Both the position numbers and the translations under genes were made by a program. DNA of 40,732 nucleotides, taken from IMG/VR virus record IMGVR_UViG_2859827302_000005, positions 1 through 40,732 of that record. One strand, given 5' to 3'. Positions 1,320 to 40,090 of this stretch are shown here, piece by piece (the stretch's first letter is position 1; every line of letters begins with the position of its first letter). This DNA comes from a virus. Lineage: Duplodnaviria; Heunggongvirae; Uroviricota; Caudoviricetes. Below the pieces are notes generated by a model, which saw only the letters and a list, made by a program, of their open reading frames with translations, was not told the origin of the DNA and ran no database searches.

Positions 1320-1500
1320 CATAATCCCAATGATTACTCCCTGACAGGGTTCGTAGGCCACTCAATATCAGGTGCAGTTGATGTATCAACACGGTTCAGC
1401 AACACCCGATACTTTTTCCAGGCTTCCAGCAATGAGGTTTCTTCCTCCGTTGCAATTTCCAGATCTGCAGCATCCTGAAGCGGCGCAATATGCTCACTGG
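1285..1500. repeat. direct repeat copy B (3' end of intact tfa plus downstream hairpin)
   Basis: Homologous to 236..450; together the two copies flank the methyltransferase gene. Confidence 0.6.
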
Positions 1501-1918
1501 CTACCTGCATCAGGTTGTTTTTTGTTTCTTCCGCCTCCCGGATCCGGAACATTTTTTCTGCTTCCGTACCCTTCACCCAGGCTGTGCCGTTCCACTTCTG
1601 AAACTCCCCTTCCGGCGATAACCAGGTAACATTTTCCGGTAACGGACCGAGTTCAGAAATAAATAACTCGTCCCCTGACGCTACGTCATAAACCGTTTTA
1701 CCCCGATGGTCTTCAACGAGATGCCACGATGCCTCATCACTGTTGAAAACAGCCACAAAGCCAGCAGGAATATCTGGTGGTGCAATATCGGTACTGTTTG
1801 CTGGCAGACCTGTATGAGGCGGAATATATGCGTCACCTTCACCAATAAATTCATTAGTTCCGGCCAGCAGATTATAAATTTTTATGGTCCGTGCTTGTTC
1901 ACTCATTCTGAATGCCAT
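1334..1918 (-). CDS. tfa: tail fiber assembly protein Tfa (lambda orf-194 type)
   Basis: 194 aa, near-identical to lambda Tfa as I recall it (MAFRMSEQ...[12 protein letters not shown]). Its ATG overlaps the stf stop codon. Confidence 0.9.
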
Positions 1919-27618: not shown

Positions 27619-28524
27619 CTATATTTCCAGACATCTGTTATCACTTAACCCATTACAAGCCCGCTGCCGCAGATATTCCCGTGGCGAGCGATAACCCAGC
27701 GCACTATGCGGATGCCATTCGTTATAATGCTCGAACGCCTCTGCAAGGTTCTTTGCTGCCGTTAACCCGTCTGGTTTGGGCATGATACTGATGTAGTCAC
27801 GCTTTATCGTTTGCACGAAGCTCTCTGCTATTCCGTTACTCTCCGGACTCCGCACCGCCGTGTTCTTCGGTTCAAGTCCCAACATCCGGGCGAACTGGCG
27901 TGTTTCATTAGCCCGGTAGCATGAACCATTATCCGTCAGCCACTCCACTGGAGACGACGGAAGATCGTTGCCGAAGCGGCGTTCCACCGCTCCCAGCATG
28001 ACGTCCTGTACTGTTTCACTGTTGAAGCCGCCGGTAGTCACCGCCCAGTGCAGTGCCTCACGATCACAGCAGTCCAGCGCGAACGTGACACGCAGTCTCT
28101 CTCCGTTATCACAGCAGAACTCGAACCCGTCAGAGCACCATCGCTGATTGCTTTCTTTCACGGCCACTCTGCCTGTATGTGCCCGTTTCGATGGTGGTAC
28201 AGCAGGTTTTCGCTCAAGCAACAGCGCATTCTGGCGCATGATCCGGTAAACACGTTTGGCATTGATCGCAGGCATACCATCAAGTTCTGCCTGTCTGCGA
28301 AGCAGCGCCCATACCCGACGATAACCATACGTGGGCAGCTCTCCGATAACATGGTGTATACGGAGAAGCACATCCGTATCATCAGTGTGACGACTGCGGC
28401 GGCCATCCATCCAGTCATCGGTTCGTCTGAGAATGACGTGCAACTGCGCACGCGACACCCGGAGACAACGGCTGACTAAGCTTACTCCCCATCCCCGGGC
28501 AATAAGGGCGCGTGCGCTATCCAC
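27619..28524 (-). CDS. insD: IS2 transposase OrfB (InsD)
   Basis: 301-aa ORF with DDE integrase-like sequence; in IS2 it is expressed as a frameshift fusion with InsC. Confidence 0.9.
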
Positions 28525-28847
28525 TTTTTTGCCCGTCCATATTCAACGGCTTCTTTGAGGAGTTCATTTTCCATCGTTTTCTTGCCGAGCAGGCGCTGGA
28601 GTTCTTTAATCTGCTTCATGGCGGCAGCAAGTTCAGAGGCAGGAACAACCTGTTCTCCGGCGGCCACAGCAGTAAGACTTCCTTCCTGGTATTGCTTACG
28701 CCAGAGAAATAACTGGCTGGCTGCTACACCATGTTGCCGGGCAACGAGGGAGACCGTCATCCCCGGTTCAAAGCTCTGCTGAACAATTGCGATCTTTTCC
28801 TGTGTGGTACGCCGTCTGCGTTTCTCCGGCCCTAAGACATCAATCAT
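28482..28847 (-). CDS. insC: IS2 OrfA (InsC)
   Basis: 121 aa, [41 protein letters not shown]…, helix-turn-helix. Confidence 0.9.
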
Positions 28848-28993
28848 CTGTACTCCAATGACTAGTCTAAAAACTAGTATTAAGACTATCACTTATTTAA
28901 GTGATACTGGTTGTCTGGAGATTCAGGGGGCCAGTCTACCCACTGACACTACCGGTGAGTTTAACGATACCTTCCATTTGACTGGCTCACTTT

Positions 28994-30930: not shown

Positions 30931-31206
30931 GTGGCTTCTGTTTCTATCAGCTGTCCCTCCTGTTCAGCTACTGACGGGGTGGTGCGTAACGGCAAAAGCA
31001 CTGCCGGACATCAGCGCTATCTCTGCTCTCACTGCCGTAAAACATGGCAACTGCAGTTCACTTACACCGCTTCTCAACCCGGTACGCACCAGAAAATTAT
31101 TGATATGGCCATGAATGGCGTTGGATGCCGGGCAACTGCACGCATTATGGGCGTTAGCCTCAACACGATTTTACGTCACTTAAAAAACTCAGGCCGCAGT
31201 CGGTAA
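30931..31206 (+). CDS. insA: IS1 InsA
   Basis: 91 aa, [43 protein letters not shown]…. Confidence 0.9.
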
Positions 31207-31250
31207 CCTCGCGCATACAGCCGGGCAGTGACGTCATCGTCTGCGCGGAA

Positions 31251-31628
31251 ATGGACGAACAGTGGGGATACGTCGGGGCTAAATCGCGCCAGCGCTGGCT
31301 GTTTTACGCGTATGACAGGCTCCGGAAGACGGTTGTTGCGCACGTATTCGGTGAACGCACTATGGCGACGCTGGGGCGTCTTATGAGCTTGCTGTCACCC
31401 TTTGACGTGGTGATATGGATGACGGATGGCTGGCCACTGTATGAATCCCGCCTGAAGGGAAAGCTGCACGTAATCAGCAAGCGATATACGCAGCGAATTG
31501 AGCGGCATAACCTGAATCTGAGGCAGCACCTGGCACGGCTGGGACGGAAGTCGCTGTCGTTCTCAAAATCGGTGGAGCTGCATGACAAAGTCATCGGGCA
31601 TTATCTGAACATAAAACACTATCAATAA
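31251..31628 (+). CDS. insB: IS1 InsB frame (C-terminal part of the InsAB' transposase)
   Basis: …[51 protein letters not shown]…; expressed by -1 frameshift from insA. Confidence 0.8.
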
Positions 31629-32222: not shown

Positions 32223-32257
32223 GGAGTTTACTCACATCTGACAAAATCAATATAAAC

Positions 32258-32455
32258 AGCCCCTCCGTAGAGGGGCTGGAGAGTGGCGCTATGTGCCATT
32301 GCATGGTGCCGGGTGCCTCCCGGTGAATTCAGTACCAGCACCTGAATCCGCGATTATCCCATATACCTACTCGCTGATTGCCCCTCCGCACAGGGGGATT
32401 CACCATGCGAAATTTTTTAACAAACTTCCCGCTGGCCAGACAATAATCGCCAGCC
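32258..32455. repeat. structured non-coding element, paralog 1 (candidate sRNA or recombination element)
   Basis: Shares ordered conserved blocks with 32721..32920: GC hairpin agcccctccgtagaggggct, gcatggtgccgggtgcctcccggtgaattcag, a hairpin attcag-N9-ctgaat, agggggattcaccatgcga, and ttttttaacaaa…gccagacaat. No conserved ORF. Confidence 0.4.
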
Positions 32456-32720
32456 TGAATTATGAGCAACGTAGCATTTTACGGGAAAACTGTTTTCTGC
32501 AGTAAAAAGGCCCGCCGGAGCGAGCCTGGAAGGATAGCGGTCATGTGATGCCGGTTTCCCGGTAACTCAGCATCGGTATCTGAGTCAACGTTTTCTCTAC
32601 TGGGTCATTTCCGATACGTTCCGCCTTCCGGCAGACTTTCATCACGTCAGAAAATATAGCACCCTGAGTAACAGGACAGTACTCAGAATTCAGGAAACTG
32701 TGACACATCCTGCACAGAAA

Positions 32721-32920
32721 AGCCCCTCCGGAGAGGGGCTGAAGTATAGCCTAATTTCTGTCTGTCGCATGGTGCCAGGTGCCTCCCGGTAAATTCAGCC
32801 TGTCTACTGAATTTGCATGTTCTCTGGATCATACACTTTGCCAGATGCCCCGCCGCTGAGGGGGATTCACCATGCGATGTAATTTTTAACAAATTCTCCG
32901 GCAGCCAGACAATCATCAAG
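32721..32920. repeat. structured non-coding element, paralog 2
   Basis: Same block order as 32258..32455. The internal hairpin keeps its stem but changes its loop (aaattcag-N8-ctgaattt). Confidence 0.4.
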
Positions 32921-33109
32921 CTGTGGAATTGTGAGGTATTTAAAAATTTCAACGGGTAACTGATACCCTGCTAATCGCCTGATGCTTTCTTTTTCAGCAA
33001 CGGGAAAGCAACAACCACCACACCCGCCACCAAAACATCATCAGACAGCACCGACATTATCCGGCTGCTGAAGTCCACCATCACCACCAGAAACAACAGG
33101 AGTGCAACC

Positions 33110-33157
33110 ACAGCTGCTTAGAAGGCAATTGCTCTGTCCGGCTGAGCTAACAACGCA
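33110..33157 (-). pseudogene. tRNA-Arg(UCU) argO-like remnant (5' half only)
   Basis: Minus strand GCGTTGTTAGCTCAGCCGGACAGAGCAATTGCCTTCTAAGCAGC gives acceptor 5' strand, D-arm and anticodon arm (loop CTTCTAA). No T-arm or complementary acceptor 3' strand follows. Confidence 0.3.
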
Positions 33158-33170
33158 GAATACCGATAAA

Positions 33171-33247
33171 TGGACCGCCATCGAGAACTCGAACCCCGCG
33201 CAACCAGCTTCGAAGGCTGGCGCTCTATCCCGATGAGCTAATGGCGG
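33171..33247 (-). tRNA. argN: tRNA-Arg (anticodon UCG), argN-like
   Basis: Manual fold: 7-bp acceptor CCGCCAT/ATGGCGG, D-stem GCTC/GAGC, anticodon stem CCAGC/GCTGG with loop CTTCGAA, T-loop TTCGAGT (T-stem with two G-U pairs), 3' CCA encoded. Confidence 0.7.
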
Positions 33248-33254
33248 TATGTGA

Positions 33255-33330
33255 TGGTGGCCCTTGCTGGATTTGAACCAGCGACCTGGCGATTATGAGT
33301 CGCTCGCTCTCACCACTGAGCTAAAGGGCC
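33255..33330 (-). tRNA. ileZ: tRNA-Ile2 (anticodon CAU, lysidine type), ileZ-like
   Basis: Minus strand GGCCCTTTAGCTCAGTGGTGAGAGCGAGCGACTCATAATCGCCAGGTCGCTGGTTCAAATCCAGCAAGGGCCACCA, close to E. coli ileX as I recall it. Confidence 0.85.
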
Positions 33331-38070: not shown

Positions 38071-38226
38071 TTACTCCTCAGGTTCGTAAGCTGTGAAGAC
38101 AGCGACCTCCGTCTGGCCGGTTCGGATTCGTACCTCGCAGAGGTCTTTCCTCGTTACCAGTGCCGTCACAATGACGGTTAAACAGATGACGATCAGGGCG
38201 ATTAGCATCGCCTTTTGCTGCTTCAT
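38071..38226 (-). CDS. hok: Hok-family type I toxin
   Basis: MKQQKAMLIALIVICLTVIVTALVTRKDLCEVRIRTGQTEVAVFTAYEPEE, 51 aa. Confidence 0.9.
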   Translation of the reverse strand: MKQQKAMLIALIVICLTVIVTALVTRKDLCEVRIRTGQTEVAVFTAYEPEE

Positions 38227-38283
38227 AGCCTGCTTCTCCTTGCCTTTCGGCACGTAAGAGGCTAACCTACGTGTGTAGAGCAT
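38071..38283 (-). CDS. mok: Mok (overlapping reading frame that drives hok translation)
   Basis: 70-aa ORF in the same frame, extending 19 codons upstream of hok. Confidence 0.6.
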   Translation of the reverse strand: MLYTRRLASYVPKGKEKQAMKQQKAMLIALIVICLTVIVTALVTRKDLCEVRIRTGQTEVAVFTAYEPEE

Positions 38284-38300
38284 AGATATGGCCTCAGATT
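38230..38300 (+). ncRNA. sok: predicted Sok antisense RNA (approximate position)
   Basis: Placed by analogy with hok/sok loci, antisense to the mok start region. Boundaries not determined from sequence. Confidence 0.3.
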
Positions 38301-38517
38301 AATGTTAAGCGTCTTGCCGGACGCGTAATGTTAACTGGGGCTTTTCTCTATCTGCCTTTTGGTGTTCATGCCTGAGACAGATAGCCTCAAGCACCCGCTG
38401 CAATTCTACTTAACTCTCCTTTTCCCGCAAACCGTTTTTATCCCCAGCGGCAAATCGAATACACCACCAGCGCCACCGCCATCGCAATTCCTACCGTTGT
38501 TAATGCTTCAGGCCAGG

Positions 38518-38765: not shown

Positions 38766-39671
38766 CTATATTTCCAGACATCTGTTATCACTTAACCCAT
38801 TACAAGCCCGCTGCCGCAGATATTCCCGTGGCGAGCGATAACCCAGCGCACTATGCGGATGCCATTCGTTATAATGCTCGAACGCCTCTGCAAGGTTCTT
38901 TGCTGCCGTTAACCCGTCTGGTTTGGGCATGATACTGATGTAGTCACGCTTTATCGTTTTCACGAAGCTCTCTGCTATTCCGTTACTCTCCGGACTCCGC
39001 ACCGCCGTGTTCTTCGGTTCAAGTCCCAACATCCGGGCGAACTGGCGTGTTTCATTAGCCCGGTAGCATGAACCATTATCCGTCAGCCACTCCACTGGAG
39101 ACGACGGAAGATCGTTGCCGAAGCGGCGTTCCACCGCTCCCAGCATGACGTCCTGTACTGTTTCACTGTTGAAGCCGCCGGTAGTCACCGCCCAGTGCAG
39201 TGCCTCACGATCACAGCAGTCCAGCGCGAACGTGACACGCAGTCTCTCTCCGTTATCACAGCAGAACTCGAACCCGTCAGAGCACCATCGCTGATTGCTT
39301 TCTTTCACGGCCACTCTGCCTGTATGTGCCCGTTTCGATGGCGGTACAGCAGGCTTTCGCTCAAGCAACAGCGCATTCTGGCGCATGATCCGGTAAACAC
39401 GTTTGGCATTGATCGCAGGCATACCATCAAGTTCTGCCTGTCTGCGAAGCAGCGCCCATACCCGACGATAACCATACGTGGGCAGCTCTCCGATAACATG
39501 GTGTATACGGAGAAGCACATCCGTATCATCAGTGTGACGACTGCGGCGGCCATCCATCCAGTCATCGGTTCGTCTGAGAATGACGTGCAACTGCGCACGC
39601 GACACCCGGAGACAACGGCTGACTAAGCTTACTCCCCATCCCCGGGCAATAAGGGCGCGTGCGCTATCCAC
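38766..39671 (-). CDS. insD: IS2 transposase OrfB (InsD)
   Basis: 301 aa; one amino-acid difference from copy 1 (K vs Q). Confidence 0.9.
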
Positions 39672-39994
39672 TTTTTTGCCCGTCCATATTCAACGGCTTC
39701 TTTGAGGAGTTCATTTTCCATCGTTTTCTTGCCGAGCAGGCGCTGGAGTTCTTTAATCTGCTTCATGGCGGCAGCAAGTTCAGAGGCAGGAACAACCTGT
39801 TCTCCGGCGGCCACAGCAGTAAGACTTCCTTCCTGGTATTGCTTACGCCAGAGAAATAACTGGCTGGCTGCTACACCATGTTGCCGGGCAACGAGGGAGA
39901 CCGTCATCCCCGGTTCAAAGCTCTGCTGAACAATTGCGATCTTTTCCTGTGTGGTACGCCGTCTGCGTTTCTCCGGCCCTAAGACATCAATCAT
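39629..39994 (-). CDS. insC: IS2 OrfA (InsC)
   Basis: 121 aa, identical to copy 1. Confidence 0.9.
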
Positions 39995-40090
39995 CTGTAC
40001 TCCAATGACTAGTCTAAAAACTAGTATTAAGACTATCACTTATTTAAGTGATACTGGTTGTCTGGAGATTCAGGGGGCCAGTCTAATCTT

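Follow-up and report, generated by a model that had tools for sequence, protein, structure and literature searches.

Three phage tRNA genes, ileZ, argN and argO, form a cluster that is annotated as such in AP012533.1 and that stands directly upstream of stx2A in Stx2 phages. The tciA-tciB pair, whose names were assigned 'by homology' (P1 record; PMC9603915) and whose putative functions are tellurite/colicin resistance and inhibition of cell division, sits among phage tRNA genes in unrelated phages too, namely P1, where tRNA-Asn and tRNA-Thr precede tciABC and tRNA-Ile(CAT) (L054 11349-13009), and JLK-2012, with tRNA-Asn/Thr/Gly, tciA and tciB (L007 1650-2644), making the association of tRNA genes with tciAB a recurrent one. 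TciB of P1 is a full-length member of PF13064 (DUF3927; 106 bits), and the full-length homologues are proteins of about 54 amino acids, MTVK(L/M)RLAxVALLLFLVVMVDF(S/T)SRIMSVLADGVLVxGxVVVxFPLxKK..., that carry two hydrophobic segments. Judged by pairwise dN/dS values of 0.11-0.35, at dS of up to 0.9, the family is evidently under purifying selection. A TerB-domain gene, tciA, lies directly upstream of tciB in 12 of 12 full-length loci (L007, L009-L019), with a 4-nt overlap between the tciA stop and the tciB start in most of them and a 1-nt overlap in P1; a few of the 12, L009 for example, have a longer TerB ORF in place of the 143-aa gene. When TciA/TciB were searched as a defence system in PADLOC, no meaningful match came up.

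The locus described here belongs to IMG/VR virus record IMGVR_UViG_2859827302_000005, analysed over its whole length of 40,732 nt (the window). It sits among the accessory ('moron') genes in the late operon of a lambdoid prophage and reads on the minus strand, where rusA is the most upstream gene of the order collected in Table 1 and where two terminator-like sites lie between Q and a small ORF that precedes the DNA methyltransferase and, after it, the tRNAs. Only ileZ and argN are called as tRNAs in the window by ARAGORN, and Rfam at its gathering threshold agrees; the former is tRNA-Ile in the RefSeq annotation of the DA33133 relative and ileZ in Stx2a_F723. Beyond the scar the order continues with two STnc100 copies, an iraM-like ORF on the opposite strand, IS1, a SASA-type esterase and the lysis genes.

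Table 1. Features of the window, in the order in which the late operon is read
Feature	Position	Strand	Evidence or remark
ORF pair (301 aa + 136 aa), IS2/IS3-family-like	38766-40039	-	identical in size to the pair at 27619-28892
sok antitoxin RNA	38221-38396	-	Rfam, 117 bits
rusA	36197-35823	-	
Antiterminator Q	35826-35005	-	PF03589
Two terminator-like sites	34922-34907 and 34594-34577	-	
N6/N4 DNA methyltransferase	34429-33371	-	PF01555
ileZ, intact phage tRNA, anticodon CAT	33255-33330	-	ARAGORN tRNA-Met(CAT); Rfam tRNA 72.5 bits
argN, intact phage tRNA-Arg, anticodon TCG	33171-33247	-	ARAGORN; Rfam tRNA 50.3 bits
argO remnant, 5' 42 nt of tRNA-Arg(UCU), pseudogene	33115-33156	-	identity to intact argO
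Deletion joint	33114/33115		blastn collinearity on both sides; L013 3368-4021 (654 bp) missing
5'-truncated tciB-like gene, codons 8-54 + stop	32971-33114	-	PF13064, PHROG 1470
CA-rich tract	33009-33042	+	91% C+A; antisense of second hydrophobic segment of tciB remnant
STnc100 sRNA, first copy	32712-32905	-	Rfam RF02076, 140.5 bits
Terminator-like hairpin of first STnc100	32740-32721		
STnc100 sRNA, second copy	32248-32436	-	Rfam RF02076, 131.7 bits
Terminator-like hairpin of second STnc100	32278-32257		
iraM-like ORF, 111 aa	31887-32222	+	
IS1	30931-31628	+	insA/insB-like ORFs
SASA-type esterase ORF	30889-28994	-	
ORF pair (301 aa + 136 aa), IS2/IS3-family-like	27619-28892	-	
IS009 RNA	1377-1575	-	Rfam, 221 bits

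The first half of the scar, which begins 14 bases beyond argN and reads GCGTTGTTAGCTCAGCCGGACAGAGCAATTGCCTTCTAAGCA from 33156 to 33115, is the 5' part of argO. Together with one upstream base (33157-33115) it is identical to intact argO at 43 of 43 positions (L010; other alignments agree), and intact argO of Stx2a phage F723, of phage PhiR49_2 and of many prophages begins with exactly these 42 nt. The kept part, GCGTTGT-TA-GCTC-AGCCGGACA-GAGC-A-ATTGC-CTTCTAA-GCA, comprises the acceptor 5' strand, the D-arm, the anticodon 5' strand and the loop CTTCTAA, and homology stops after GCA, with 3 of the 5 nt of the anticodon-stem 3' strand in place; the last 35 nt, which would supply the rest of that strand, the variable loop, the T-arm and the acceptor 3' strand, are gone. 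Alignment to intact argO thus bears out the preliminary description, in which a truncated, argO-like third tRNA with anticodon UCU and with neither T-arm nor acceptor 3' strand had been recognised; of the arms said there to be kept, the acceptor 5' strand and the D-arm are present, and the anticodon arm is not whole. No complete cloverleaf was found for argO by ARAGORN, the check that had been proposed for a third tRNA, or by Rfam at the gathering threshold across the whole window. At relaxed thresholds Rfam returns a partial tRNA signal at 33147-33113 (model positions 10-42 of 71; 14.2 bits against a gathering score of 29; E=8.9), so the identity of the fragment is established by homology, over tRNA positions 1-42 only, and not by the covariance model. 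Since the cloverleaf cannot form without a T-arm and an acceptor 3' strand, argO function is lost. In the predicted fold of the remnant transcript, the tRNA hairpins are not kept in the minimum-free-energy structure, which is no better than that of shuffled sequences (z=+0.33), and the in-frame TAA of the anticodon loop ends the reading frame just upstream of the tciB remnant.

The second half of the scar is a decapitated member of the TciB family. The longest ORF left in it (33111-32971) begins with GTG and encodes 46 aa, and the 36-aa hydrophobic ORF with an ATG start (33081-32971) that had been noticed earlier exists as the inner part of this longer one. The 46-aa product matches PF13064 at 65.6 bits, well above the cut-off of 25 (E=3.8e-18; profile positions 11-50 of 53), as well as the PHROG 1470 'TciB-like' profile (E=1.1e-18; positions 10-51 of 54), and the remnant is 57% identical to TciB of P1. 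The earlier guess that the ORF might specify a small membrane peptide was the right one, the peptide being of the TciB/DUF3927 family on the strength of the Pfam match, and RefSeq/PGAP label the equivalent ORF at the joint 'DUF3927 family protein'. A tblastn search with TciB against the phage collection gave no match, the low-complexity filter likely masking the hydrophobic peptide. Both hydrophobic segments and the KKK tail are preserved in the window. The first 7 codons are missing, and with them the positively charged N-terminus MTVKxRL, so that what remains is neither a full-length protein nor one with a native start; the overlapping TerB-domain tciA that would stand upstream is deleted.

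The two halves meet at a joint, ATTGCCTTCTAAGCA|GCTGTGGTTGCACTC, at which argO nucleotide 42 is connected directly to tciB codon 8 at 33114. The event that produced it can be read from an undeleted reference allele, the prophage L013 (GCA_050197635.1), to which the window is collinear on both sides: by blastn, window 34500-33115 corresponds to L013 1983-3367 at 90.8% identity, and window 33114-32846 to L013 4022-4298 at 86.3%. The undeleted order is methyltransferase, ileZ, argN, argO, hairpin, tciA (TerB), tciB and STnc100. The 654 bp that the window lacks comprise the 3' 35 nt of argO, a 170-bp spacer with a terminator-like hairpin (L013 3417-3434, GGCTCGCTTTTGCGGGCC followed by T6), the whole of tciA, which encodes a TerB-domain protein of 143 aa, and 7 codons (21 nt) of tciB. 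The ends are flush, with no microhomology and 0 bp inserted. Intact argO, tciA and tciB occur together in several backbones (L010-L015, L018, L019), and four of these (L011-L013, L018) share the exact upstream context of the window, with Q, the small ORF, the methyltransferase, ileZ, argN and an intact argO, followed by the 170-bp spacer, tciA and tciB. An insertion, to yield the undeleted allele, would have needed to make a tRNA and an ORF whole at once and without error, so the direction must be that of a deletion. These comparisons, with the distribution described below, show a single 654-bp deletion, fix both of its ends and show that it arose once and is widely inherited.

The feature is thus, with high confidence, a deletion scar, consisting of a 654-bp loss, a dead argO half and a decaying tciB remnant on the late transcript. 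Its ancestor would have carried Q, a small ORF, an N6/N4 DNA methyltransferase, ileZ, argN, argO, a terminator-like hairpin, tciA and tciB, followed by the STnc100 sRNA, an iraM-like gene, the SASA esterase and the lysis genes, with tciB specifying a 54-aa DUF3927 protein of two hydrophobic segments whose start overlapped the tciA stop. One flush-ended deletion of 654 bp then fused argO nucleotide 42 to tciB codon 8, killing argO, taking out the hairpin and all of tciA, and leaving tciB uncoupled from tciA and with neither a start codon nor a Shine-Dalgarno sequence. The scar would since have been carried passively on the Q-antiterminated late transcript, its argO half as an inert leader and its tciB remnant poorly or never translated and decaying; the segment most likely does nothing.

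The scar is widespread. In a search with 61 nt centred on the joint, 325 of the 5426 complete E. coli genomes proved to carry it, as did 4 records of the phage collection, three of them deposited as partial genomes; the exact 30-mer of the joint recurs in the type strain of E. albertii and on 29 contigs of IMG/VR. A count of 712 genomes, obtained with a 281-nt query at >=80% coverage, was rejected, as it included two-piece matches of the M45 type, in which argO is intact and followed by about 500 bp of other DNA. The joint does not vary among 37 sequences that carry it, and the scar around it is nearly invariant: the argO remnant (42 nt) has 1 variable site and the tciB remnant (144 nt) has 2. 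Upstream of the scar, argN and the spacer fall into at least three haplotypes, one of them with argN decayed, and the Q types differ between carriers, a pattern that fits one ancestral event spread among prophage backbones by recombination.

Most carriers have gone one step further than the window. In 29 of the 37 sequences the second hydrophobic segment has lost 1 more nt, which yields a 38-aa product that ends in ...LVAGVWLLLSRC*; frameshifted alleles outnumber in-frame ones by 29 to 3 when the window and four loci fetched by means of the in-frame protein are left out. All 60 of the 60 best E. coli matches carry the frameshift, and in the protein collection the frameshifted product is found on at least 1000 contigs, as against 45 for the 46-aa product of the window (P0013, named from Shigella dysenteriae in its sources). 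The in-frame allele also occurs in L020-L023 and in about 50 blocks of the assembly collection. The window, as far as allele comparison tells, holds the earlier, rarer and still in-frame state, most carriers being frameshifted, and the frameshift points to decay of the remnant. The very low diversity of the scar implies a short age, and the prevalence of the frameshift could therefore reflect one haplotype hitch-hiking and not repeated loss.

Erosion is also seen at other members of the tRNA cluster. Degenerate sequence that ARAGORN does not call occupies the argN position in 813R8 (L006 ~2620-2700) and M45 (L002 2424-2523); it occurs with intact argO in M45 and mEp460 and with truncated argO in 813R8. 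As argN decay accompanies either state of argO, the three-tRNA cluster erodes independently at different members.

A different and very common arrangement is found in the M45-type loci (L002 2598-3231; L003, L008), where an intact argO is followed by about 500 bp of AT-rich DNA, within which lies an unannotated ORF of 117 aa (L002 2711-3064), and then by a DUF3927 gene. The N-terminal third of this gene is rewritten (VIAYCFCEWHC...) and its C-terminal two-thirds are in frame, giving a product of 43 aa that at least 999 contigs carry. The arrangement has the look of a second and independent event in which canonical tciA was lost and the 3' part of tciB kept, and the retention of the reading frame might hint that this part of tciB is worth keeping.

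The explanation that competes best with a dead scar, if still an improbable one, is that the truncated ORF continues to work, with a 46-aa (GTG 33111) or 36-aa (ATG 33081) TciB' being made and retaining some TciB activity without TciA. Its frame is open in the window and in L020-L023, the hydrophobic segments and the KKK tail are intact, PGAP calls the equivalent ORF a family protein, and the independent M45-type lineage keeps its N-terminally rewritten version on many contigs. How translation would begin is the difficulty, since the native start, its Shine-Dalgarno sequence and the 4-nt overlap with the tciA stop have all been deleted. The anti-Shine-Dalgarno energy at GTG 33111 is -1.4 kcal/mol, which amounts to no Shine-Dalgarno sequence, compared with -6.4 at the native tciB start; a weak GGUGGUG match before ATG 33081 reaches -6.2 kcal/mol and speaks for the shorter product, but it abuts the ATG with almost no spacing. 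The loss of the positively charged MTVKxRL N-terminus counts against a working peptide as well, as does the frameshift, which destroys the second hydrophobic segment in about 90% of unselected carriers. Somewhat less probable again is the more specific proposal that a decapitated TciB', of 46 aa or in its 43-aa M45-type form, is produced by initiation at a non-canonical start and works by itself as a small membrane peptide; if true, it would explain why two independent rearrangements have kept the C-terminal two-thirds of tciB in frame beside STnc100.

The deletion scar also accounts for the composition of the tciB remnant, in which the preliminary description had seen a possible sRNA seed or decoy. 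The CA-rich tract on the plus strand is real and is the most CA-rich 34-mer in the entire 40.7-kb window. The codons opposite it specify valine, glycine and leucine (GTN, GGT, TTG), with 12 Val codons besides Gly and Leu, and between lineages of the family the differences within the tract are mostly synonymous, with the peptide conserved. Given these synonymous differences within the GU-rich stretch and the dN/dS range of the family, the CA-richness is best read as a by-product of the valine-rich codons of a membrane segment and not as an RNA-level signal. That the GU-rich stretch of the transcript serves as an sRNA seed or as a decoy for sRNAs or Hfq is accordingly very unlikely. The tract is a compositional extreme, it precedes STnc100, a bona fide family of prophage sRNAs, by 66 nt, and sRNAs and anti-sRNAs encoded in prophage late regions offer a precedent (bioRxiv 10.64898/2026.05.13.724894). 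Against this, it falls entirely within a Pfam-supported coding region whose constraint is that of a protein (dN/dS 0.11-0.35), its fold does not depart from that of shuffled sequences (z=+0.33), no Rfam family matches it at E<=10, no promoter-like or terminator-like sites were found to bracket it, and in most carriers the 1-nt deletion falls inside it. No sign was seen of a discrete transcription unit, of a conserved structure or seed independent of coding, or of likeness to a described family, and the sRNA suggestion is left unsupported; a GcvB-like or other seed need not be invoked, as the coding-level pattern of variation already accounts for the tract.

Equally improbable is the model first put forward for this locus, in which the break is a tRNA-targeted recombination point where stx cargo was swapped for other cargo. 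The position of ileZ-argN-argO directly upstream of stx2A in Stx2 phages lends it plausibility, and the homology of the window to those phages does end at the break (286 nt, ~93.7%), where the alignment that had been called for places it. The cargoes, however, part company elsewhere: in the Stx2 phage, the tciAB prophages and PhiR49_2, the shared sequence runs through argO and the hairpin and for another 15-25 nt, after which stx, tciA or other cargo follows, and the boundary between stx and tciAB cargo is by this alignment about 40-60 nt downstream of intact argO, after the shared hairpin, and not at the break in the window. Relatives with argO, tciA and tciB are collinear with both flanks of the break, so no cargo was exchanged there, and what happened was the loss of 654 bp from within a single type of cargo. 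The appeal to tRNA 3' ends as recombination targets fails likewise, as the break lies inside the anticodon stem, without microhomology. No sign of an att-type event was seen at the break: nothing is inserted, no integrase adjoins it and no tRNA 3' segment is repeated. The flank 33400-32500 showed the 3' part of argO in no second copy, and ARAGORN reports no further tRNA-like gene in the window. The ORFs beside the break are the methyltransferase, the iraM-like gene and IS1. An integrase/att integration site was considered and rejected, given the collinearity of both flanks with undeleted relatives and the 0 bp inserted.

Least credible of all is the retention of the 42-nt argO half as a functional tRNA-half-like RNA, or as a processing or stability element for the downstream message, which its complete identity to functional argO, its single variable site among 37 carriers and its place directly 3' of argN, whose maturation would presumably make a nearby 5' end, might recommend, but its low diversity is common to the adjoining, decaying ORF and thus reflects the youth of the scar and not selection, its predicted fold drops the tRNA hairpins and is no better than shuffles, and the acceptor/T-arm helix that RNase P substrates require is missing.

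Several neighbouring elements deserve mention in their own right. The terminator-like, T-run hairpin right after argO is common to the tciAB prophages (L013 3403-3445) and to Stx2 phages (Stx2a_F723/L004 2821-2870), where stx2A begins just downstream of it. The two STnc100 copies, with a mean column identity of 82% in their alignment, each close with a terminator-like hairpin, and the first starts only 66 nt past the stop of the tciB remnant; a 70-aa ORF antisense to the second, called by gene callers in relatives, is probably spurious. The iraM-like ORF is annotated in RefSeq relatives as anti-adapter IraM, with a precomputed match to PF11183 (PmrD), and had no Pfam match at E<=1 in our own scan. 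IS1 lies between this ORF and the SASA-type esterase ORF, and in relatives without IS1 the two genes adjoin. The two ORF pairs of identical size suggest two copies of one IS within the prophage, which, with IS1 added, is probably IS-riddled and defective. Hok and Rem are encoded beside the position of sok in relatives.

The scar illustrates the erosion of the Q-to-lysis accessory region in lambdoid prophages, in which a tRNA gene and the tciAB module were lost in one step and the result afterwards spread between prophage backbones by recombination. For annotation, a 'DUF3927 family protein' at this joint is best taken as a 5'-truncated and usually frameshifted pseudogene and the argO half as an unannotated tRNA pseudogene, and the exact joint offers a handy lineage marker for this prophage segment in Escherichia and Shigella. 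It affords no new insight into cargo exchange in Stx phages.

No description of this truncation or deletion was found in the literature on ileZ/argN/argO, on DUF3927 or on argO with Shiga toxin, and the pieces themselves are already known, one being a pseudogene of a familiar phage tRNA and the other a truncated member of a catalogued family. With argO of 933W-like Stx phages and other lambdoid prophages, the remnant shares an identical first 42 nt, its place after ileZ and argN, and its position downstream of Q, here also of a DNA methyltransferase; it differs in the want of the last 35 nt, in not being a tRNA by ARAGORN or Rfam and in having no stx downstream. With TciB of the P1 tciABC operon (PF13064, PHROG 1470) it shares the two hydrophobic segments and the invariant core FLVVMVDF..RIMSVL.D..LV, and differs in lacking the first 7 codons, the start, the Shine-Dalgarno sequence and the upstream partner tciA (TerB). 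Undeleted alleles of the L013 type have the same order, from Q and the methyltransferase through the tRNAs to tciB and STnc100, at 86-91% identity, and the window lacks their central 654 bp. The frameshifted scar alleles (WP_000226111.1; E. coli DA33133; vB_EcoS-813R8/733R4/640R1/716R1) have the identical joint and remnant and carry a D-to-G codon change and the 1-nt deletion, with a product of 38 aa, whereas the window keeps the original frame and 46 aa. Set beside these systems, the scar is an ordinary and widely inherited one, and is neither a new RNA nor a marker of Shiga-toxin replacement.
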